This document shows, in pieces, positions 6,991 to 27,404 of a stretch of DNA of 64,000 nucleotides (position 1 is its first letter; each line of letters opens with the position of its first letter). The position numbers and the translations under genes were made by a program. The notes under the pieces were generated by a model that saw nothing but the letters and a program-made list of their open reading frames with translations, searched no databases and was not told the DNA's origin. Source of the stretch: Acidobacteriota bacterium (GTDB lineage: Bacteria > Acidobacteriota > UBA4820 > DSQY01); the NCBI GenBank assembly GCA_021778515.1, contig JAJYCJ010000002.1, positions 1,542 through 65,541 on the forward strand. The letters run 5' to 3'.

Positions 6991-8787
6991 ATGCGTCCCT
7001 CCCGTCGTCTGAAGAGTGCATGCCTGGGCGTCCTTTCCGTGATGGTCCTTCTCGTGGTTCTATCGGCGTGCTCCGTCAGCGGGAAGGCGCAGGAAGCGCC
7101 GCTGTACCACTGCCCCATGCATCCCCAGGTCACTTCCGACAAACCCGGAGACTGCCCCATCTGCGGCATGCGGCTCGTGCGCGTGAAGCCGAACCCGGCC
7201 CCCGGGCAGACCGCCCGACCGGAACCAACGGCGGCCTCTCGGTCACCGCAGGCCGCCTCCGCCGACCCTGGCGTCGCGCCCACTCAGGCCACCACGACTT
7301 TGCCGCCCCCACCCAAGACCAAGACCATGTGGCGCTCCACCATGAATCCCGACGAGGTGAGCGACCACCCCGGCAAGGACTCCATGGGCATGGAAATGGT
7401 GCCCTTCACGGTCAGCGAGCCGGCACCCGCCGAAAGCACCGGGGCTTCGCCACCGGCCTCCTCCTCCACTTCGCCGCCCAAGACCAAGACCATGTGGCGC
7501 TCCACCATGAACCCCGGCGAGGTCAGCGACCACCCCGGCAAGGACTCCATGGGTATGGACATGGTGCCCTTCACGGTCAGCGAGCCGGCACCCGCCGAAA
7601 CCACCGGGGCTTCGCCACCGGCCTCCTCCTCCGCTTCGCCGCCCAAGACCAAGACCATGTGGCGCTCCACCATGAACCCCGGCGAGGTCAGCGACCACCC
7701 CGGCAAGGACTCCATGGGCATGGACATGGTGCCCTTCACCGTGACCGAATCATCCACCCCAACGCCCAAGGGACTGGCGGCCGTTTCGGTGACGGGTGAA
7801 GACGCCAAGCGCATGGGGCTGACTTACGGAACGGTCCAAGAGCGGGACCTGCGCCGCGACGTGCGCACCGCGGCGCGGATCGTGCCCGACGAGACGCGCC
7901 TTTACCGTGTCAACACGAAGGTGGGCGGCTGGGTCGAGAAGCTCTACGTCAACACCACGGGGCAGGCCGTCCGCCGGGGCCAGCCGCTCCTTTCCATCTA
8001 CAGCCCCGACCTGCTGGCCTCGGAGCAGGAGCTGCTCTCCGCCCTGAGCGCCGCCAAGCAGCTCGCCCAGAGTCCCTACAGCCAAGTGTCCCAGGGCGGT
8101 CAGGCGCTGGTAGACGCCGCCGTGCGGCGCCTCAGGCTCTGGGATATCAGCCAGGCCCAGATCGAGCGGATCGAGAAGACGGGGCAGGTGGAAAAGGACG
8201 TGACTCTCTACGCACCGGCATCCGGGTACGTTACGGACAAGACGGTGCTTCCCGGACAGCGCATCACCCCCGGCGATCCCCTCATGGTCGTGGCCGATCT
8301 CTCGACGGTGTGGGCCGTGGCCGAACTCTACGAATCGGACCTCCCCTACGTCAAGGTGGGCATGCCCGCCAAGGTGACTCTCCCCTACTGGCCTGGCAAG
8401 GTTTTCAAGGGGCGCGTCCGCCTCCTCGACCCCTTCCTCGATCCCACCACTCGGACGCTGAAGGCCCGCTTGGTGATCCCCAACCCGGGGATGGTCCTCA
8501 AACCCGGCATGTACGGCGATGCCCACCTGGAATACGACCTCGGGGTGCGGACCGCCGTTCCCGACTCGGCGATCCTGCCGGCGGGAGAGCACAACTACGC
8601 CTTCGTGGCCGGTTCCGACGGCACCCTCACCCCCGTCGAGGTGACCCTCGGGCCGCGCAGCGGTGGCTACTTCGAAGTGTTCTCGGGCCTCACCCCGGGC
8701 CAGCGCGTCGTTACGTCAGCCAACTTCCTGGTGGATTCGGAATCCTCCCTCAAGGCCGCACTTCAGGCCATCGCTACCGGGAAGTGA
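6991..8787 (+). CDS. cusB: efflux RND periplasmic adaptor (CusB-like) lipoprotein with one N-terminal HMBD and three Met-rich modules
   Basis: ATG 6991 follows GGAGAAGAGA. Lipobox VLSAC. HMBD YHCPMHPQVTSDKPGDCPICGMRL. Three copies of KTKTMWRSTMNP(D/G)EVSDHPGKDSMGM(E/D)MVPFTV. MFP core ...LYAPASGYVTDKTVLPGQRITPGDPLMVVADLSTVWAVAELYESD.... Confidence 0.9.
   Translation: MRPSRRLKSACLGVLSVMVLLVVLSACSVSGKAQEAPLYHCPMHPQVTSDKPGDCPICGMRLVRVKPNPAPGQTARPEPTAASRSPQAASADPGVAPTQATTTLPPPPKTKTMWRSTMNPDEVSDHPGKDSMGMEMVPFTVSEPAPAESTGASPPASSSTSPPKTKTMWRSTMNPGEVSDHPGKDSMGMDMVPFTVSEPAPAETTGASPPASSSASPPKTKTMWRSTMNPGEVSDHPGKDSMGMDMVPFTVTESSTPTPKGLAAVSVTGEDAKRMGLTYGTVQERDLRRDVRTAARIVPDETRLYRVNTKVGGWVEKLYVNTTGQAVRRGQPLLSIYSPDLLASEQELLSALSAAKQLAQSPYSQVSQGGQALVDAAVRRLRLWDISQAQIERIEKTGQVEKDVTLYAPASGYVTDKTVLPGQRITPGDPLMVVADLSTVWAVAELYESDLPYVKVGMPAKVTLPYWPGKVFKGRVRLLDPFLDPTTRTLKARLVIPNPGMVLKPGMYGDAHLEYDLGVRTAVPDSAILPAGEHNYAFVAGSDGTLTPVEVTLGPRSGGYFEVFSGLTPGQRVVTSANFLVDSESSLKAALQAIATGK
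7312..7742 (+). repeat. in-frame tandem repeat, 165-bp unit, about 2.6 copies, inside cusB
   Basis: Units start at 7312, 7477 and 7642 (CCCAAGACCAAGACCATGTGGCGCTCCACCATGAA...). Copies 2 and 3 are almost identical, and copy 1 differs at a handful of positions. Each encodes a 55-aa module PPKTKTMWRSTMNPxEVSDHPGKDSMGMxMVPFTVSEPAPAExTGASPPASSSxS. Confidence 0.9.
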
Positions 8788-8791
8788 CAGC

Positions 8792-11700
8792 ATGATCCGC
8801 AAGCTCATCACCTTCTCGGCGCACAACAAGTTTCTGGTGCTGGCCCTTGTGGCGGCGGCCCTGGCCTACGCCGCTTACGCCCTCCACCACATCCGCCTGG
8901 ACGCCATCCCCGACCTATCCGACACCCAGGTCATCGTGTACACGCGCTGGGACCGGAGCCCGGACGTCATCGAGGACCAGGTCACCTATCCCATCATCGC
9001 CGCCCTGTTGGGGACGCCCCGGGTGAAGGCCATCCGGGGCTTCTCGGATTTCGGCTTCTCCTACGTCTACGTGGTCTTCGACGACGGCACCGACATCTAT
9101 TGGGCCCGCAGCCGGGTGCTGGAGTACCTCTCCAAGATCCAGGGAAGCCTGCCGGAGGGCGTGCATCCGGAGCTGGGGCCCGACGCCACCGGCGTCGGCT
9201 GGGTCTATCAGTACGTCCTGGTTGACCACAGCCACGAGCACAACCTCGCCCAGCTGCGCTCCTATCAGGACTGGACCCTCCGCTACGCCCTCGAGAGCGT
9301 ACCCGGCGTGGCCGAGGTGGCGAGCATCGGCGGCTTCCAGAAGCAGTACCAGGTGACCATCGACCCCATCCGCCTTCAGGCCTACAACCTCTCGATCCTG
9401 GACGTGGCCAGGGCCATCCGGCAGAGCAACAACGAGGTGGGCGGCAGGCTCATCGAATTCGCCGGCACCGAGTTCATGGTGCGCGGCGAAGGATACCTCC
9501 AATCCACCTCCGACCTCGACAAGGTCGTGGTGAAGGCGACACCTGGCGGAACACCCGTGCTTCTGAAGGACGTGGCCACGGTCGCTCTCGGTCCTCAGAT
9601 GCGCCGCGGAATCCTGGACTGGAACGGCGACGGCGACGCCGTGGGCGGCATCGTGGTCATGCGCCAGGGCGAGAACGCCCTCAACGTCATCGACCGGGTC
9701 AAGGCGAAGCTCGCCTCCATGAAGGCCTCGCTCCCCGCGGGCGTCACCATCGAGCCGGCCTACGACCGCTCCGAGCTCATCCAGCGCTCCATCGACAACC
9801 TCAAGGAAGAGCTGCTTCTGGAGATGCTCGTCGTGAGCCTGGTGATCCTCTTCTTCCTCTGGCACTTCCCGTCGGCCATGGTGCCCATCATCACGATTCC
9901 CATCAGCGTACTCCTGGCCTTCATCCCCATGTATTTCATGGGCATCACCTCCAACATCATGAGCCTCTCCGGCATCGCCATCTCCATCGGCGTGCTCGTG
10001 GACGGGGCCATCGTGGAGGTGGAGAACGCCTACAAGAAGCTGGAGCTGTGGCAGGAGGGCGGCCGCGTGGGCGACTTCCACGCCGTGCGCCTGGAGGCCC
10101 TGCTGGAGGTGGGGCCCTCGGTCTTCTTCTCCCTCGCCGTCATCGCCGTGGCCTTTCTGCCCATCTTCACCCTGACGGGTCAGGAGGGGCGGCTCTTCAA
10201 GCCGCTCGCTTACACGAAGACGCTCGCCATCGCCATCGCGGCGCTTCTCGCCGTGACCCTCGATCCGGCCGTGCGCATGCTCTTCGCGCGGATGGACCGC
10301 TTCAAGGTAAAGCCCCGCTTCATCGGCAGGACGCTCGATGCACTCTTCATCGGCACCTACTACCCCGAGGAGAAGCACCCCGTGAGCCGGGTCCTCTTCT
10401 GGCTCTACGAGAAGCCGTGCCGCTTCGTCCTGCGCCACCCCAAGAGCATCATCGCGACGGCCCTGCTTCTCGTCGCCATCTCCGTTCCCATTTACTTCCG
10501 GCTCGGCCAGGAGTTCATGCCTCCCCTGGACGAGGGCACGATCCTCTACATGCCGACCACCCTGCCGGGCATCTCGGTGACGCAGGCTCAGGAGCTGCTC
10601 CAGACCGAGGACCGCATCCTCAAATCCTTCCCCGAGGTCGTCTCGGTCTTCGGAAAGGCCGGCCGGGCGGACACCTCCACCGATCCAGCGCCTTTCTCCA
10701 TGATGGAGACGACGGTGGTACTCAAGCCCGATTCCCAGTGGGGGGCCAAGCCCCGCTGGTACTCCTCCTGGGCGCCTCACTGGCTCAAGGGGGTGCTGAG
10801 CCACGTCTGGTCCGATCACATCTCCTACAGCGAGCTCATTGATCAGATGGACCGGGCCATCCAGATCCCCGGAAACACCAACGCCTGGACCATGCCCATC
10901 CGGGGCCGCATCGACATGCTCACGACGGGGGTTCGCACCCCCATCGGGATCAAGATTCTCGGGGACAACCTGGATGAGATTCAGCGCATCGGCGAGCAGA
11001 TCCAGCGGGTCCTGCAGAATGTCCCCGGAACCCGCAGCGTCTTCGCCGAGCGCACCGGCGGGGGCTACTACGTGGACTTCGTCCCGAAGCGCGACGCGCT
11101 GGCTCGCTACGGGCTCACCATACAGGACCTGCAGGACGTGATCATGACGGCGGTGGGAGGCGAGAACATCACGACGACCGTCGAGGGGCGCGCGCGCTAC
11201 TCGGTGAACCTGCGCTACCCCCGCGACCTGCGCGCCAACCTCGACCAGCTCCGGAGGATCCTCGTCAGCACCCCCACCGGCGTGCAGGTTCCCATGGAGG
11301 AGCTGGCCGACGTTCGGACGGACCTGGGGCCCTCCATGATCCGGGACGAGAACGGCATGCTGGCGGGTTACGTCTACGTGGATCTGACCGGCCGGGACGT
11401 GGGCTCTTACGTGGCGGCCGCGCAGAAGGCCGTGGAGAAGGCGGTGCACCTGCCCACGGGCTACTCCCTCATCTGGAGCGGACAGTGGGAGAACATGATC
11501 AGCGTGCGGCAGCGCCTGAAAGTCGTGGTACCCATCACGCTGTTGCTCATCTTCCTGCTCCTCTACATGAACACCAAGTCCCCATTCAAGGCGATGGTGG
11601 TGTTGCTGGCGGTCCCCTTCTCGGTGGTGGGCGCCATCTGGCTTCTCTACTTCTTGCACTACAACGTCTCCATCGCCACGTGGGTGGGGATGATCGCGCT

Positions 11701-12097
11701 CATGGGGCTGGACGCGGAGACGGGCGTCTTCATGCTCCTATTTCTGGATCTCTCCTACGACGAGGCCTTGAAGGCGGGACGCCTGCGCTCGCTGGGCGAC
11801 CTCCACGATGCCATCGTCCACGGCGCGGTGAAGCGCATCCGCCCCAAGATGATGACCGTCACCGCGGCGGCCATGGGCCTCATGCCCATCATGTGGTCCC
11901 AGGGCACGGGCGCGGACATGATGAAGCGCGTGGCGGCGCCCATGGTGGGCGGACTCTTCACCTCGTTCCTGATGGAACTTCTCGTCTATCCCGCCATTTA
12001 TCTGCTCTGGAAGAGGCGCACCTTGCCCGCTCAGGAGGGCCCGTCCCAGGGGTCGGACCACCAGGGGGCAAGTGGCCGCATCCTGGGTGGCATGTGA
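8792..12097 (+). CDS. cusA: CusA/CzcA-family heavy-metal efflux RND transporter
   Basis: [53 protein letters not shown]... is a typical HME-RND N-terminus. About 1100 aa with 12 TM segments. ATG 8792 lies 5 nt after the cusB stop. The track ORF start (8663) is an upstream extension. Confidence 0.93.
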
Positions 12098-12120: not shown

Positions 12121-14793
12121 ATGAAGAGGCAAGCGGAGACAGAAGCACACCGGGCCGCCGACGCGCCCGCCGACACGCGGGACCCCGTCTGCGGCATGAC
12201 GGTGGACCCGGAGCACCCTCGCGGCGGAACCGCCGCCTACGGCGGCAAGACCTACGGCTTCTGCAATCCGATGTGCCGGGAAAGGTTTCTCGCAGAGCCC
12301 GAGAAGTACCTCGCGCCCACCTACAGGCCCATGGGGATGCCGATGATGCCGGTGATGATGAAGCACCAGCCGGCAAAGGCGGCCGAGCAGCCCAGGGACC
12401 CGGTGTGCGGCATGACGGTCTCCCCTGACGGGGCCGCGGGAAGCTTCGAGCAGGATGGCACCACCTATTGGTTCTGCTCGGCGCACTGCCTGGAGAAATT
12501 CAAGGCGGATCCGCGCGCCCACCTCGGCGAAAGGCCAGCTCGAAGCGTGGCAAAGGTGGCACCGGGAGGCACCCGCTACACATGTCCCATGGATCCAGAA
12601 GTGGTACAGGACCATCCGGGGGCCTGCCCCAAGTGCGGCATGGCCCTCGAGCCCATGGACATCACGGCGCCCGCGACTGCCACCGTCTTCACCTGCCCCA
12701 TGCACCCCCAAATCCGGCAGGACCATCCGGGCGCGTGCCCCAAGTGCGGCATGGCTCTTGAGGCGCAGACGGTCACGGTCGAGGAGGAGAATCCGGAATA
12801 CAAGGACATGAAGCGGCGCTTCTGGGCGGCGCTAGCCCTGACCGTGCCTCTCTTTGTCGTGGCCCTCCCTCACATGGTTCCAGCGCTCACCATGCAGCAC
12901 CTCATCTCCTCCGGGACGGCGGGATGGCTGGAATTCATTCTCTCCACGCCCGTGGTCTTCTGGGCCGGCTGGGTTCTGCTCAAGCGGGGGTGGGATTCTC
13001 TGGTCCACCGCAGCCCGAACATGTTCACCCTCATCGGCATGGGCGTCGGCGTCTCCTACGTCTACAGCGCAGTAGCCCTTCTCTTCCCGCAGGTTTTCCC
13101 GCCCGCCTTCCGCGATGAGAGCGGGCAGATCGCCACGTACTTCGACGCGGCCGCCATGATCACGGTGCTGGTACTCCTGGGCCAGGTAATGGAACTCAAG
13201 GCCAGGAGCCGCACATCGAGCGCCATCAAGGCGCTGCTCGGCCTGGCGCCGAAGACGGCGAGGATGGTCAGGTCCGACGGATCCGATTCGGACGTCCCCC
13301 TTGATCAGGTCCGGCCCGGCGACACCTTGCGAGTCCGTCCCGGCGAGAGGGTGCCCGTGGACGGCCTCGTGCTCGATGGTTCCAGCTCCGTGGACGAATC
13401 CATGATGAGCGGCGAACCCATTCCCGTCGAGAAGGGCCCCGGCGACCCGGTCACCGGCGGAACGGTCAACGCTACCGGCGGTTTTACCATGCGGGCCGAG
13501 CGCGTGGGCGGCGACACCCTGCTGGCCCAGATCGTCCGCATGGTGGGCGAGGCCCAGCGAAGCCGCGCGCCCATCCAGCGCATCGCCGACGCCGTGGCCT
13601 CCTATTTCGTGCCGGCCGTGGTCCTCGCGGCGGTGGTCACTTTCATCGTCTGGGCCCTGTTGGGTCCACAGCCCGCACTGGCCTACGCGCTCGTCAACGC
13701 GGTGGCGGTCCTGATGATCGCCTGCCCGTGCGCCCTCGGCCTCGCCACCCCCATGTCCATCATGGTGGCCACCGGCCGGGGCGCCCGCGCGGGGATTCTC
13801 ATCAAGAACGCCGAAGCCCTGGAAACCCTTCAGAAGGTAGACACGCTGGTGGTGGACAAGACGGGCACCCTGACCGAAGGCAGACCCAGGTTGAGGGAGG
13901 TCGTGGCCCTCGACGGCCTCTCAGAAAACGAACTCCTCGGCCTCGCCGCAAGCCTCGAACGAGCCAGCGAGCATCCTCTCGCGGCGGCCATCGTCGCCGG
14001 CGCCGAAGAACGAGCAGTCCCGCTCCAGAAGGTCGAAGAGTTCCAATCCGTCACGGGCAAGGGAGTGACCGGAAAGATCGCGAACCGCGCCGTTGCCCTC
14101 GGCAATGCCCGCTGGCTGCAATCCATGAACATCGGGGAGGGGATCCTCGCCGAGAGGGCGGAAGGTCTTCGAAGACTCGGCAGGACCGTCATGTTCGTGG
14201 TCCTTGGAGGACGACTGGCCGGCCTGATCACCGTCTCGGACCCCGTCAAACGTACCACCGCCGAGGCGGTGAGGTCTTTGAAGGAACAAGGAATCCGCAT
14301 CATCATGCTGACGGGCGACAACCGGGCCACGGCGCAGGCCGTGGCCGACGAGCTGGGCATCGAGGAGGTCGAGGCGGACATCCTGCCCGACCAGAAGAGC
14401 GCCGTGGTCAAGCGTCTCCAGAGCGAGGGCCGCTTCGTGGCCATGGCCGGAGACGGGGTGAACGACGCTCCGGCGCTCGCTCAGGCCCAGGTGGGCATCG
14501 CCATGGGTTCGGGCACGGACGTGGCCATGGAAAGCGCGGGCATCACCCTTCTGAAGGGTGATTTGCGCGGCATTGCGATGGCCTACAGGCTCAGCCGGAA
14601 GACCATGGCCAACATCAAGCAGAACCTCTTCTTCGCCTTCGTGTACAACACGATCGGCATTCCCATCGCCGCGGGCATACTGTACCCATTCTTCGGTCTC
14701 TTGCTGAGCCCCGTGATCGCGAGCGCGGCCATGAGTTTCAGCTCCGTGTCGGTCATCAGCAACGCCCTACGTCTGCGCAGGGTGGTTCTATGA
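12121..14793 (+). CDS. copA: Cu(I)/Ag(I)-translocating P1B-type ATPase with 2 YHS/TRASH-like + 2 HMBD N-terminal modules
   Basis: N-terminus carries [10 protein letters not shown]...[18 protein letters not shown]...[32 protein letters not shown] and [24 protein letters not shown]. Core motifs: TM CPC ([12 protein letters not shown]), DKTGT (VVDKTGTLT), [10 protein letters not shown] (FVYNTIGIP) and MSFSS. ATG 12121; the track ORF start at 11485 overlaps cusA. Confidence 0.95.
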
Positions 14794-23684: not shown

Positions 23685-25439
23685 ATGGCTCAGGCAAGAA
23701 TTCCTCTCGCCGCCCTTCTCCTTGCCCTCGCCACACCTCTGTTTGCGGCTCCTCCCGCGGGCCGATCTTTCGACAACTCCCTGTGTGACTCCATCTGCGG
23801 CGCGCGCAACTTTCACGTGGAGGAGAGCGCCCTCAAGGCGAAGGAGCTTTTCGAGAGGGCTCGGACTGAGGCCGCCGGAGTCCAGCCCCACCAGGCACTG
23901 GATATCGAACACTATCGCCTCGACATCCATCTCGACCCCGCCGCGCGTACGATCCAAGGCACGGTCACGCTTACCTTTCACCCCACGGCCCCCCTCGGCC
24001 AGCTCCGCCTTCGCCTCCACCCCGCCCTGAAGATGGACGGCGCCTCTCTGGATGGAACCGGTCTGTCGACGGTCAGCCGAAGGGGCTCCAACGTGACGCT
24101 CGCCTTCGCGCCGCGATTGCTCCCCGCGAGCCGGCACGAAATCGCGGTCTCTTACAGTGGTTCTCCGGTGACCACCTCGGGCCTGGGCGGCGGCATGCTT
24201 TTCGCCAGCCACGCCGGGGTCCCCAGCGCCACCACTCTGTCCGAGCCCTTCGATTCCTATGCCTGGTGGCCCTGCGTGGATGACGTGGACGACAAAGCCA
24301 CGCTGGATATGATTCTCACGGTGCCCTCCGGCATGGTCGGGGCTTCCAACGGCACCCTCCAGGAGGTGTTCAACAACCCCGACGGCACCCAGACCTACCA
24401 CTGGAGGGAATCCTACCCCATCGCCAACTATCTGATCTCGGCCAACGTCACCAATTATGCCTTCTTCTCGGATACCTACACGGCGCTGAACGGCTCGACC
24501 ACCATGCCGGTCACCTACTACGTCTATCCCGAGTCCCTTCCATCGGCCACGGGGAACGTGCAGGCCGTTCCGGACATGATCCGCTACTTTGCAGAGCTCT
24601 GTGGGGAATACCCCTTCATCGACGAAAAGTACGGAATGGTGGCCTTTCCCTGGGGCGGCGGCATGGAGCATCAGACGCTCACGAGCATGGGAGACGCCTT
24701 CCTGGGGCGGTCGGGGAATTTCGAGGGCATCTACGCCCACGAGCTGGCCCACCAGTGGTGGGGGGACGAGGTGACCTGCGGCACCTGGAACGACATCTGG
24801 CTGAACGAGGGCTTCGCCACCTACTTCGAAGTGCTCTGGCTCGCACGCTCCAACGGGCTCTCGGAGAGCGACGTCATCAGCCAGTACGACGACGGGGCCT
24901 ACAACGGCTACCTGGGCGGCAGCGTTTACGTCACCGATGGGAACAAACCCTTCGCGGACACGGGCGCCATCTACGACAAGGGGGCCTGGGTTCTCCACAT
25001 GCTGCGCCACGTCGTGGGAGAATCGGCCTTCTGGCAAGGCCTGGCCGACTACCGCCAGGCCCAGGGTTACGGAAACGCCACGACGGACGATCTCCGACAC
25101 GCCTTCGAGGCGGCCTACGGACGCTCGCTCGCGTGGTTTTTCGACCAATGGGTCTACACCCCGAAGCGCCCCATCTACAGCCTCGCGTCCAGCCAAACCG
25201 GCAACACACTGACCGTCACCCTCGCCCAGAAGCAGAAGCACTTGGTGCGGCGGCGTTCCACCCACCGGGACACCTACATCATGCCCGTGGACCTGACCTT
25301 GCACTATCAGGACGGGAGTGAGGAGACGAGGAGCGTCTGGAACGACCAGCGGACCCAGACCTTCACCCTGCCGGTTAACCAGGACGTTGCGGCCGTAGGG
25401 CTCGACGAGGATCACTGGATTCTCAAGGTCGTACGTTAG
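23685..25439 (+). CDS. secreted M1-family zinc aminopeptidase
   Basis: Signal peptide MAQARIPLAALLLALATPLFAAP. Exopeptidase motif GGMEH, zinc motif HELAHQWWG plus WLNEGFATY. Confidence 0.9.
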   Translation: MAQARIPLAALLLALATPLFAAPPAGRSFDNSLCDSICGARNFHVEESALKAKELFERARTEAAGVQPHQALDIEHYRLDIHLDPAARTIQGTVTLTFHPTAPLGQLRLRLHPALKMDGASLDGTGLSTVSRRGSNVTLAFAPRLLPASRHEIAVSYSGSPVTTSGLGGGMLFASHAGVPSATTLSEPFDSYAWWPCVDDVDDKATLDMILTVPSGMVGASNGTLQEVFNNPDGTQTYHWRESYPIANYLISANVTNYAFFSDTYTALNGSTTMPVTYYVYPESLPSATGNVQAVPDMIRYFAELCGEYPFIDEKYGMVAFPWGGGMEHQTLTSMGDAFLGRSGNFEGIYAHELAHQWWGDEVTCGTWNDIWLNEGFATYFEVLWLARSNGLSESDVISQYDDGAYNGYLGGSVYVTDGNKPFADTGAIYDKGAWVLHMLRHVVGESAFWQGLADYRQAQGYGNATTDDLRHAFEAAYGRSLAWFFDQWVYTPKRPIYSLASSQTGNTLTVTLAQKQKHLVRRRSTHRDTYIMPVDLTLHYQDGSEETRSVWNDQRTQTFTLPVNQDVAAVGLDEDHWILKVVR

Positions 25440-25589
25440 AAGAAACCCCCGCCAGGCCTCGCTCTTCGCTCACGCTCTCGCGGCGGGGCTACGCCGTCTC
25501 CCGCCCTTCTCGTCCCCCCTTCTCGTGCCTTCGAGGAGCCCTGAGACACCGGTGGGGAGGGTCTCCCCTCCCCACCCAAGTACAACCTT

Positions 25590-25698
25590 TGGTGCCGAAG
25601 GGGGGACTCGAACCTACGCGGCCTAGAAGCCTCGCCGCTCACGAATCTCGCGGCTCCGTTTCAAGGCCGCCTACGGTTCCCGGGGCGGGTCCCTCGGC
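25590..25698 (-). pseudogene. tRNA-Leu-derived tRNA-like remnant (unit 1)
   Basis: Minus strand is 109 nt: GCCGAGGGACCCGCCCCGGGAACCGTAGGCGG...GTAGGTTCGAGTCCCCCCTTCGGCACCA. The 3' 25 nt are identical to the real tRNA. A complementary 5' acceptor half (GCCGAGG) and a D-arm-like GGAACCGTAGGCG are retained. The T-stem 5' half and the anticodon arm are not intact by eye. Confidence 0.35.
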
Positions 25699-25852
25699 TT
25701 GCCCCGCTTCGCTGCGAACGCTCGCTCTTCGCTCGCGTTCTCCCGGCGGGGCTACGCCATCTCCCGCCCTTCTCGTCCCCCCTTCTCGTGCCTTCGAGGA
25801 GCCCTGAGACACCGGTGGGGAGGGTCTCCCCTCCCCACCCAAGTACAACCTT

Positions 25853-25961
25853 TGGTGCCGAAGGGGGGACTCGAATCTACGCGGCCTAGAAGCCTCGCCG
25901 CTCGCGAGTCTCGCGGCTCCGTTTCAAGGCCGCCTACGGTTCCCGGGGCGGGTCCCTCGGC
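25853..25961 (-). pseudogene. tRNA-Leu-derived tRNA-like remnant (unit 2)
   Basis: Same 109-nt element as 25590-25698, with 3 substitutions (GAATC for GAACC; CGCGAGT for CACGAAT on the plus strand). Confidence 0.35.
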
Positions 25962-26115
25962 TTGCCCCGCTTCGCTGCGAACGCTCGCTCTTCGCTCGCG
26001 TCCTCGCGGCGGGGCTACGCCGTCTCCCGCCCTTCTCGTCCCCCCTTCTCGTGCCTTCGAGGAGACCGGAGACGTCAGCGGGGAGGGTTTCCCCTCCCCA
26101 CCCAAGTACAACCTT

Positions 26116-26202
26116 TGGTGCCGAAGGGGGGACTCGAACCCCCATGGTCTTGCGGCCGGTGGATTTTGAGTCCACTGCGTCTACCGGTTCCGCCACTTCG
26201 GC
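26116..26202 (-). tRNA. tRNA-Leu (anticodon CAA), CCA encoded
   Basis: Minus strand: GCCGAAGTGGCGGAACCGGTAGACGCAGTGGACTCAAAATCCACCGGCCGCAAGACCATGGGGGTTCGAGTCCCCCCTTCGGCACCA. It has a 7-bp acceptor stem, anticodon stem GTGGA/TCCAC with loop CTCAAAA, a long variable arm, and T-stem GGGGG/CCCCC. Confidence 0.9.
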
Positions 26203-26636
26203 CAAGGGGCCATTCTAGGAAGGATCGCCCGGTGCGTCAACCTCCGGAGAAATGCCAGCCGGGCGGCGATGCGGGTTTCCAGCCTCCAGACAGCCCCGCG
26301 CACGCGCATTTCTCGGCCGCCGGCTCATGCGCGAACGGTTTCGTGAATCCAAGGTTCCGATCCCGGGGCCAGGCAAAAGGTCGGCTGGAGCAGGCTCACC
26401 CCCGGACAGAGGAGCCGTCCACGAAGTAGAAGCGGTGGAATCAGCTCCTTTCGAGGGCCGCGAGCTCATCGGCGAGGACGGCACAGGAGCGGCAGCGGCA
26501 GCATGGCGCTCCGCTCGGTGTCGGCGGAAATCCGCAACACCTTCCTCGATGGCCTCAAGGGGGATTTGAGTGACTACCCTCCGGGGAGGGAAGAGCCGAC
26601 GTCGAAGGCGGGCCGCGCCGATGGCGGGAGTATTCC

Positions 26637-27404
26637 TCAGGCCCGGCGCTCAAGCAGAATGACGGTGATGTTGTCCTCGCCGCCCTTCTGATTGGCCAGC
26701 TCTACGAGGGAGCGGCAGGTGGCTTCGAGGGACTCCCGGCGGGCAAAAGTTTTGGCGATATCCTCCTCGGCGGCCATGGAGTTCAGCCCATCGCTGCACA
26801 AGAGGACCCGGTCGCCCACCCCCACATCCATTTCGAGCACGTCCGCCTGCGCCTGGTCTCTCGTGCCGAGCGCCTTGGTAATGACGTTTCGGAACGGGTG
26901 GTGGGCCGCCTCCTCTTCCGTCAGGAAGCCCAGCCGCACCTGCTCGCTGACCCATGAATGGTCCATGGTGAGAACCGAGAGCTGGCTGCTGGAATAGAGG
27001 TAGGCCCTGCTGTCGCCCACGTGCCCGATAATGAGCTTGTCCCCCACGACGAGCGCCGCCACGACCGTGGTCCCCATGCCTCTCGATTCGGGATGCTCCG
27101 AGGAGTAGTTCTGAATCTGCTCGTTCGCAAGGGCAATGGCGGTCCTCAGCTTGTTCCCTTCGAATGAGAGGCTGTCGTCGTAGGAGGGGTAGGGCCAGGT
27201 CGCCTCTTCGGAGAGGTCTTGAATCTCAAAAAAGGCCACGATCTGATTGACGGCCATCTGCGCGGCCACCTCGCCCGAAGAGTGGCCCCCCATGCCGTCG
27301 GCCACCACATAAAGTCCGAGCTCGGGGCGGACGGCAAAAGCGTCCTCGTTGTTGCTTCGCTTGCGACCCACGTCGGTCAGGCCGGAGGCCTCCATAGTCA
27401 TCAT
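26637..27404 (-). CDS. PP2C-family Ser/Thr protein phosphatase
   Basis: GLTDVGRKRSNNEDAF, VVADGMGGHSSGEVA, LLCSDGL, GGEDNITVILL. Its ATG overlaps the upstream stop (ATGATGA). Confidence 0.92.
   Translation of the reverse strand: MMTMEASGLTDVGRKRSNNEDAFAVRPELGLYVVADGMGGHSSGEVAAQMAVNQIVAFFEIQDLSEEATWPYPSYDDSLSFEGNKLRTAIALANEQIQNYSSEHPESRGMGTTVVAALVVGDKLIIGHVGDSRAYLYSSSQLSVLTMDHSWVSEQVRLGFLTEEEAAHHPFRNVITKALGTRDQAQADVLEMDVGVGDRVLLCSDGLNSMAAEEDIAKTFARRESLEATCRSLVELANQKGGEDNITVILLERRA

Follow-up and report, generated by a model that had tools for sequence, protein, structure and literature searches.

The RtT repeats behind the tyrT gene of Escherichia coli have been known since 1978 and, to our knowledge, have never been explained, their function and origin being unclear. 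These rttR/RtT repeats yield a processed RNA. This processing is echoed in a preprint (bioRxiv 10.1101/2024.07.17.603846), which reports that exonuclease-resistant DNA coverage of the tyrT-rttR region is raised under stress and whose authors leave the mode of action open. In E. coli K-12 the tyrT-tyrV-rttR region (NC_000913.3:1286300-1288000, our locus L132) holds four 178-bp units, each ending in AATCCTTCCCCCACCACCA; 85 nt upstream of this tail every unit carries GGGGAAGGAT, the complement of the tail start, together with GAGAA. Here we describe an arrangement of this kind in a stretch of 64,000 nucleotides of Acidobacteriota DNA (hereafter the window), where a tRNA-Leu(CAA) gene is followed by 2.6 tandem units of 263 bp. 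These units are very probably tandem copies of a lineage-specific, protein-less structured element of ~190 nt, which is anchored on the segment from T54 to CCA of tRNA and transfer-messenger RNA (tmRNA) genes. The assembly from which the window derives (3.34 Mb in 176 contigs, labelled G000 and referred to as the source genome) carries the array on a 92-kb contig (C80).

Structure of the unit and its tRNA partners

Each unit comprises segment D, which repeats the local tRNA between T-loop position 54 and the CCA end (23-25 nt) and is usually accompanied by a trailer (F), the 5' strand of a closing helix (P1), and a conserved core with two arms, P2 and P3. The part common to different loci is the ~165 nt preceding the tail, and not the tRNA-Leu tail or the trailer hairpin. 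A three-way junction was recovered both from folding of single copies and from 14 aligned copies. In P1, a 5' strand of 12-16 nt (e.g. GAAGGGGGGACGAGAA behind Leu-CAA and CGGGTCTCGAA behind Gly-CCC) pairs with the T-loop and the T-stem 3' strand of the unit's own tail, and this pairing with the local tRNA sequence includes tRNA-specific positions. P2 is closed by GGGCGGG/CCCGCCC and bears a variable hairpin, of which we distinguish at least three types (A, B and C, the last being longer). P3 opens with GAACC, paired to GGTTC just before D, continues into a covarying stem (GCGGCC/GGCCGC, GCCTCCC/GGGAGGC, TTTCCC/GGGAAG, GCGCCC/GGGCGC), and beyond it displays the conserved internal loops CCTTGAAACG and GCGAGGCTTCTAGG, followed by an apical hairpin. 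The acceptor 3' strand and CCA are left unpaired in the fold, and many copies have GAGAA in place of TCGAA at the junction of P1 and core.

A covariance model (R1) was built for the element, and covariation was measured on 86 distinct copies from many genomes. In the R1 alignment, which is fitted to the model and thus favours structure, 95.4% of cells pair, compared with 82.8% in column shuffles and 35-53% with slid partners; both sides have changed in 26 of the 43 pairs, and none of 500 shuffles reached the observed values. An independent analysis with MAFFT and RNAalifold gives the same covariation.

The source genome contains 18 full copies of the element besides fragments, a search with one unit giving strong matches on eight other contigs. 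The occupied genes are Leu-CAA/CAG/GAG, Arg-CCG (after His), Gly-CCC, Lys-CTT, Ser-TGA, Ser-GCT, Ala-CGC and tmRNA; wherever the context of a copy could be resolved, a tRNA or tmRNA gene of the same strand stands immediately upstream of it. Matches to R1 occur in all 25 genomes of this Thermoanaerobaculia family, spanning six genera with 2-24 matches per genome (partial copies included); outside the family they occur in one of four genomes of a sister family and in none of 13 genomes of further families, of which one belongs to the class and 12 come from the rest of the phylum. The targets amount to ~19 tRNA kinds plus tmRNA, namely Leu (five anticodons), Arg-CCG/ACG, Lys-CTT, Trp, Ser-TGA/CGA/GCT, Ala-CGC, Glu-CTC, Asp-GTC, the selenocysteine tRNA, Gly-TCC/CCC, and tmRNA. 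Among the fetched loci, 49 of 53 scorable copies have a tail that differs at no more than two positions from the 3' end (last 23-26 nt) of the upstream same-strand tRNA or tmRNA, 38 of them being identical; one further copy is unscorable owing to an assembly gap.

This distribution bears on the idea that the units are decayed tandem duplicates of tRNA-Leu homogenised by recombination, a reading offered by the original prediction and favoured by short similarities to the gene (GCCGAGG, and GGAACCG-TAGGCG as compared with GGAACCGGTAGACGC). However, the core follows ~19 tRNA kinds and tmRNA, each time with the tail of that gene, and within a subfamily it is 77-96% identical behind Lys, Arg, Ala, Trp, Ser, Gly and tmRNA as well. 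Since elsewhere the same core ends in the tRNA tail of its own locus and not in that of tRNA-Leu, the units are not decayed tRNA-Leu genes. The pieces formerly assigned to an acceptor stem and a D-arm pair elsewhere, with covariation. GCCGAGG, proposed as an acceptor 5' strand, is unchanged behind tRNA-Lys, where acceptor pairing is impossible, and pairs inside P2; its partner there is ACGGC, and Arg copies have ACGCC/GGCGT instead (CGGC/GCCG changed to CGCC/GGCG). GGAACCG, previously likened to a D-arm, belongs to P3, where its partner is the GGTTC within the T-loop piece of the same unit. Variants with GAATC/GATTC keep this pair; they show that identity to the tRNA starts at T54 and that P3 is preserved independently of the tRNA, also in copies that diverge from it. 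Nor do the units qualify as tRNA-like by standard tools: ARAGORN and an Infernal check called only the genuine tRNA-Leu, and the units gave no match to the Rfam tRNA model at E <= 10. Hence, decayed tRNA-Leu duplicates appear very unlikely. The dispersed copies form a family and are not a local duplication.

Among all Rfam families, no match was found on the units (E <= 10 in the array region, E <= 1 at three other loci), and weak matches to sX4 and mascRNA cover the real tRNA only. Literature searches returned no description of tRNA-linked structured repeats in Acidobacteria or elsewhere; archaeal tRNA disruption (PMC3293823) is a different case.

The T-loop of the host gene matters. In the source genome, all 11 occupied tRNAs have TTCGA (11 of the 30 with this T-loop), versus none of the 14 with TTCAA (estimated p about 0.007). 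What the family shows is that the helix closing on the tRNA tail is the conserved principle, that the T-loop TTCGA is required, and that the core is exchangeable while the bracket stays matched to its locus. C34 isoacceptors account for six of the nine R1-occupied tRNAs of the source genome. Such isoacceptors are often dispensable.

An exact-pattern scan over one genome per species (185,579 species) found 51 stretches, all in metagenome-assembled genomes (MAGs) of uncultured Acidobacteriota/Thermoanaerobaculia, and a separate exact-pattern scan gave no match among IMG/VR viral contigs. The MAGs stem from several studies and several assemblers, and arrays also lie inside contigs of 145-540 kb. 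This is relevant to the suspicion of an assembly artefact in a repeat-rich MAG, which is nourished by runs of N in several arrays (of the source and sister MAGs) and by the many copies at contig ends. Given that the same architecture recurs across studies and assemblers, inside long contigs included, and that orthologous loci agree, an artefact is extremely unlikely. The copy number of 2.6 may be strain-specific or limited by the assembly; the element itself is real, as the orthologous locus is present with one copy in MAGs of other studies. From a practical point of view, these elements break MAG assemblies at tRNA loci, and they can be mistaken for tRNA pseudogenes or attachment-site (att) scars.

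The array behind tRNA-Leu(CAA) and its relatives

The array and its surroundings in the window are composed as follows.

26212..26240, minus strand: sigma-70-type promoter of the tRNA gene (TTGACG, 17 nt, TAGAAT), 10 of 12 matches, mean of 0.0 in shuffles
26116..26202, minus strand: functional tRNA-Leu(CAA), called by ARAGORN; Rfam tRNA model 59.2 bits
26116-26138, minus strand: segment D (T54 to CCA), the final 23 nt of the tRNA, repeated after every unit
26050..26115, minus strand: trailer F, copy 1, containing the hairpin GGGGAGGGGAAACCCTCCCC at 26080-26099
25853..26049, minus strand: element unit 1, 197 nt; model R1 191.6 bits (C80:27394-27590)
26033-26048, minus strand: P1 5' strand of unit 1, GAAGGGGGGACGAGAA
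25945-26032, minus strand: arm P2 of unit 1 (GGGCGGG...CCCGCCC)
25877-25944, minus strand: arm P3 of unit 1, with the conserved internal loops CCTTGAAACGG and GCGAGGCTTCTAGG
25853-25875, minus strand: D copy of unit 1
25787..25852, minus strand: trailer F, copy 2, with its hairpin at 25817-25836
25590..25786, minus strand: element unit 2, 197 nt; model R1 196.5 bits
25770-25785 and 25590-25612, minus strand: P1 5' strand and D copy of unit 2
25523..25589, minus strand: trailer F, copy 3, with its hairpin at 25554-25573
25458..25522, minus strand: distal remnant, comprising a third P1 5' strand (25507-25522) and the first ~50 nt of P2, then unrelated sequence
23685..25439, plus strand: convergent neighbour outside the element, an M1-family peptidase (Peptidase_M1 103.9 bits), stop codon 18 nt from the array end
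26637-27404, minus strand: PP2C-type phosphatase gene upstream of the tRNA promoter (PP2C_2 70.6 bits)

The outline of the locus given by the original prediction holds. ARAGORN, the Rfam tRNA model and TRF agree on tRNA-Leu(CAA) followed by 2.6 units of 263 bp (TRF: period 263 bp, 2.6 copies, 95% matches, 25458-26140). The predicted recurrence of the tRNA 3' end was found again, its final 24-25 nt reappearing at 25853-25876 and 25590-25613, the first copy with one change (GATTCGAG). The two 109-nt segments that had been called tRNA-like indeed differ at three positions only, and the hairpin said to be shared by the genuine tRNA and each unit, GGGGAGGGG-ARA-CCCTCCCC, is present three times, once behind each D copy. 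Unit 2 folds far better than shuffled sequence (z = -6.7 as RNA and -5.9 as DNA). The distal remnant of 65 nt is without P3 and D and gives a weak R1 match of 30.7 bits; the orthologous remnant of a sister genome is shorter than that of the window. The promoter of the tRNA gene is the sole promoter-like site of the array region. The hairpin GGGGAGGGGAAACCCTCCCC in the trailer has no T-run and hence is no canonical terminator, by which read-through from the tRNA promoter would be possible in the window.

At the orthologous Leu-CAA locus, G003 and G009 carry one unit each and G002 one resolved unit, with an assembly gap at the tRNA end. At this locus of G003 (L062, 269-6905), a 6.6-kb island lies between tRNA-Leu(CAA) and the element, and its attR reproduces the tRNA from the anticodon loop through CCA. 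The crossover of this island is thus in the anticodon loop, and the island is unrelated to the units.

Filled and empty sites are found within the genus. tRNA-Trp (between rpmG and secE) and tRNA-Gly(TCC) have one unit in a sister genome and none in the source genome, and the filled and empty sites differ by exactly trailer, P1, core and tail, with a 25-nt repeat at the bounds. At the tmRNA locus, two units are present in the source genome and none in three sister genomes, and a short distal remnant is seen in all four. In other genera, one genome is truly empty at tmRNA, one holds a 3'-truncated copy and one a chimera. The chimera (G021, L093) joins the P1 of tmRNA to the tail of tRNA-Ala, which suggests recombination between elements of different loci. 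The tmRNA trailer of genus g1 (L084-L087) consists of AAGAGAT and then a purine-rich stretch, terminator included, with a P1-like remnant past the terminator in 4/4 genomes; a similar trailer opening occurs inside the unit inserted at tRNA-Gly(TCC) in G001. The g1 tmRNA trailer looks element-derived.

In arrays with a degenerate or truncated member, this member is always the one farthest from the tRNA, its 5' part being kept and its distal tail lost. The distal position may reflect survivorship, because a unit with two tails is readily lost by recombination and a unit deprived of its distal tail can no longer leave. At its left end the repeat begins at T54 in all cases. Among 37 distal units, its right end coincides with CCA in 7 and falls no more than 6 nt from CCA in 6 others; in the remaining ones it lies farther downstream, in some at the terminator T-run (L027, L029).

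Grouping of the cores follows genus and genome as closely as tRNA type, and their tree requires 32 changes of tRNA type versus a minimum of 14. Within the genus, the Leu, Lys and Trp loci have cores that are 90-96% alike, and their P1 strands each fit their own tRNA. Adaptation of P1 by point mutation alone was rejected, since at these loci of one genus the cores differ by less than 10% and yet the P1 strands differ at 5 or more positions. Near-identical cores with locus-matched P1 imply that P1 is re-templated or else that the loci exchange their cores. We also considered a CRISPR-like model in which the core acts as 'spacer' and D-F-P1 is duplicated at each insertion, and abandoned it as a general scheme: the clean Trp and Gly-TCC insertions duplicate D only, and truly empty sites are without P1.

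Two other repeats occur in these genomes. Repeat X, which is rich in GC, forms multiple hairpins and has no relation to the element, measures 130-150 nt and has 13 copies; its locations in G000 are C152:2208-2355, C110:39277-39427, C118:~12560-12700, C107:~11670-12050, C57, C59 and C133. Behind tRNA-Gly(GCC) and tRNA-Asp it stands in the same bracket, with a repeat from GGTTCGA to CCA plus trailer. At the 3' ends of protein genes, six of seven strictly matched copies are followed by an exact copy, 30-60+ nt long, of sequence 89-162 nt upstream, stop codon included. Repeat R2, CCAAGAGGGA(A/G)GC...CTCGCTGAACTCCTC...GGGCAAAGCCCG, resides in trailers between tRNAs and elements (G000 C1:12320-12560, C2:~7030-7160, C38:~7610-7720 and ~8080-8200; L025; L127:1870-1960). 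The R2 copy of L127 holds a group II intron with a reverse transcriptase/maturase of 459 aa (TIGR04416, 412 bits).

Possible routes of spread and a possible role of RNA

A mobile nature of the units is suggested by the filled and empty sites, as these differ within a genus by one unit bounded by the T54-CCA repeat. In our view the units most likely live as a non-autonomous, selfish insertion and amplification element, and we give about even chances to a DNA route, via a trans-acting recombinase or homology-driven unit-length circles. A unit (D-F-P1-core) would enter the tRNA gene at T54, inside the T-loop TTCGA; the gene would stay whole, and a second D copy would remain behind the unit. Recombination between D repeats could add or remove units, the newest adjoining the tRNA, and copies without a distal D would no longer be removable and would degenerate in the position most distant from the tRNA. 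The fold may present the attachment segment as a duplex, thereby locking P1 to the local tRNA. Candidates for the likeliest agent are a recombinase supplied in trans and homology-driven integration of unit-length circles. If the elements are mobile, this would mean targeting of tRNA genes without an element-encoded enzyme, a remodelling of the 3' ends and terminators of tRNA and tmRNA genes, and additional sites at which islands could attach.

The scar of an integrative element or a reservoir of att sites, as put forward originally, comes closest to this DNA route among the earlier readings: att-like repeats of the tRNA 3' end do bound the units, but no integrase gene is inside them. In fact, no gene at all is found within the units (190-260 bp). 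The earlier remark that no integrase is nearby extends to the whole 92-kb contig, on which there is no tyrosine recombinase; the five Phage_integrase matches of the source genome are on other contigs. By the look of their sequences, these five tyrosine recombinases are two XerC/D-like proteins, two small island integrases and one longer P4-like enzyme. The island integrases of the C38 type are tRNA-Ser-specific and are missing from six element-bearing genomes. At tRNA-Ser(GCT), an integrase island used the tRNA tail (D) of the element as its attachment site; since the island sits inside D, element tails can act as extra attachment sites.

Several observations speak against the DNA route as we have outlined it. 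No recombinase, transposase or reverse transcriptase was found linked to the elements. A site-specific circle model leaves unexplained how D and P1 are re-matched to ~19 tRNAs with cores 90-96% alike in a genus. The layout of repeat X (A - element - A) suggests a duplication process more general than one site-specific integrase, and because X shares this layout, an RNA/cDNA-based or replication-based mechanism stays in play. Between genera, core identity (85-92%) resembles that of the tmRNA gene (81-89%), which could reflect purifying selection at the level of the host. Furthermore, G-T mismatches (84) and A-C mismatches (59) are about equally common, counts that are compatible with either strand and with RNA as well as single-stranded DNA as the folded molecule.

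On the other hand, the unit may spread through RNA and complementary DNA (cDNA), with a reverse transcriptase supplied in trans. The enzyme would copy the 3' end of a tRNA or its precursor from CCA or from the terminator, switch template within TTCGA onto the element RNA and copy the core; the folded cDNA end would then snap back and copy the D start into the P1 5' strand, and homology to the tRNA 3' end would direct integration of the product. Target-primed or cDNA-mediated insertion typically leaves long duplications of variable length. In line with such a route, the exact mature 3' end is the commonest end point of the repeat (7/37 at CCA and 6 more within 6 nt) and in some cases at the terminator T-run. 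P1 fits every local tRNA despite near-identical cores, for which templating is a better explanation than point mutation, and the left boundary is T54 in all tRNAs, the same as for the unrelated repeat X at two tRNAs. Enzymes of the group II intron type switch templates and make snap-back DNA (bioRxiv 10.1101/792986; 10.1101/2022.03.14.484287), and group II intron reverse transcriptases do exist in the bacterial family, one intron lying 200 nt upstream of an element. However, RVT_1 reverse transcriptases occur in only 8 of the 25 family genomes, and this sole adjacent intron is inserted in an R2 repeat, as introns that target terminator-like hairpins are. No promoter for an element RNA was found, none of 59 units having a sigma-70-like promoter upstream. 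The trailer F' between tRNA and P1 in the clean Trp and Gly-TCC insertions requires an extra template switch, and GAGAA at the P1/core junction of many copies would not be expected from snap-back priming on TTCGA. Moreover, all tRNA genes of the source genome encode CCA, so an RNA origin of D is not demonstrable. Taken together, we consider retro-mobility a serious rival of the DNA route, if a rather unlikely one.

The units might also be of direct use to the host as a small RNA of the RtT type. They would be transcribed by read-through from the tRNA promoter and excised by the tRNA 3'-end machinery, giving a structured RNA (e.g. for control of stress or tRNA processing), and changes in copy number would be a mere by-product of the repeats. 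The same bracket in E. coli rttR/RtT, the strong covariation and the conserved internal loops all fit this proposal, as does a between-genus divergence similar to that of tmRNA, and read-through is plausible at the window locus, where the hairpin after the tRNA is without a T-run. Yet presence and copy number vary within one genus, distal copies decay, and the same bracket is found around different core subfamilies and even around an unrelated core. At many loci a good intrinsic terminator separates tRNA and unit, a terminator-like hairpin with a T-run being present at this position for at least 14 of the 59 units, and G-U mismatches are not in excess over A-C. A host-serving RNA is therefore doubtful in our view; if the units were RNAs, they would form a large new family of tRNA-linked small RNAs.

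Beyond these alternatives, we tentatively hypothesize, as an idea with a small chance of being correct, that the units are programmable structured mini-elements belonging to an undescribed general class that includes E. coli RtT. Such an element, a three-way-junction RNA or single-stranded DNA of roughly 190 nt, would read the T-loop and 3' strand of a chosen tRNA gene by means of two internal strands and would insert at T54 without a gene of its own, and its P1 'guide' would be rewritten from the target at each insertion, e.g. by snap-back synthesis. If this were true, tRNA 3' ends would be platforms for such elements and their arrays in many phyla.

Comparison with described systems

Miniature inverted-repeat transposable elements (MITEs), repetitive extragenic palindromic doublets forming hairpins (REPINs) and bacterial interspersed mosaic elements (BIMEs) are, like the present units, small, non-coding, structured and multi-copy, lie downstream of genes and have terminal inverted complementarity. 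The ends of the present units, however, are derived from the target and differ by locus, and in place of the short fixed target-site duplications of MITEs we find duplications of 23 to >100 bp with one fixed end. Thus, neither constant terminal inverted repeats nor short fixed target-site duplications were found in the units.

In the Neurospora Mauriceville retroplasmid, tRNA sequence is captured by cDNA-mediated template switching. This retroplasmid and elements of the type of short interspersed nuclear elements (for context see PMC9925561) resemble the present units in their tRNA-like 3' end with CCA, in homology-based integration beside tRNA genes, and in variable long duplications. The present setting, in contrast, is bacterial and has no linked reverse transcriptase.

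Integron cassettes with their attC sites share with the present family a site that is conserved in structure and not in sequence, a newest member that is proximal, and the fact that sequence past the crossover travels with the unit. Unlike them, the present units show no apparent IntI/attI context, are targeted to the tRNA T-loop, and fold into a three-way junction instead of an attC hairpin.

Integrative elements that target tRNA and tmRNA genes with a crossover in the T-loop, and cis-mobilizable elements (CIMEs) (PMC5704250, PMC6323972), are similar in that the insert is flanked by directly repeated tRNA 3' ends, the gene remains intact and tandem stacking occurs; CIMEs are also without an integrase of their own. 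They measure kilobases, whereas the present units measure 190-260 bp and are gene-free. In addition, the present family has one conserved fold that pairs the attachment segment and serves many tRNAs.

The closest likeness is to RtT (rttR, RF00391). In both, tandem units directly behind a tRNA each terminate in a copy of its 3' end, CCA included (19 nt in E. coli), a closing helix is formed with the copy of the tRNA tail, and GAGAA follows the complement strand, in many of the present copies as in E. coli. R1 aligns P1 on all four E. coli RtT units (10.6-14.5 bits), skipping the interior. The differences are that the interiors cannot be aligned (85 nt in RtT, about 160 nt in the present units), that the copy begins at position 58 in RtT and at position 54 here, and that RtT is known at one tRNA, compared with ~19 tRNA kinds and tmRNA for the present family. 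The Rfam RtT model gave no match on the present units, with a threshold of E <= 10 for the window region and of E <= 1 for three further loci. With ~19 tRNA targets and tmRNA, several hundred matches, 25 genomes and clean filled and empty sites, the family provides the first rich comparative data set for RtT-like repeats, and its units share the RtT architecture without belonging to the RtT family.

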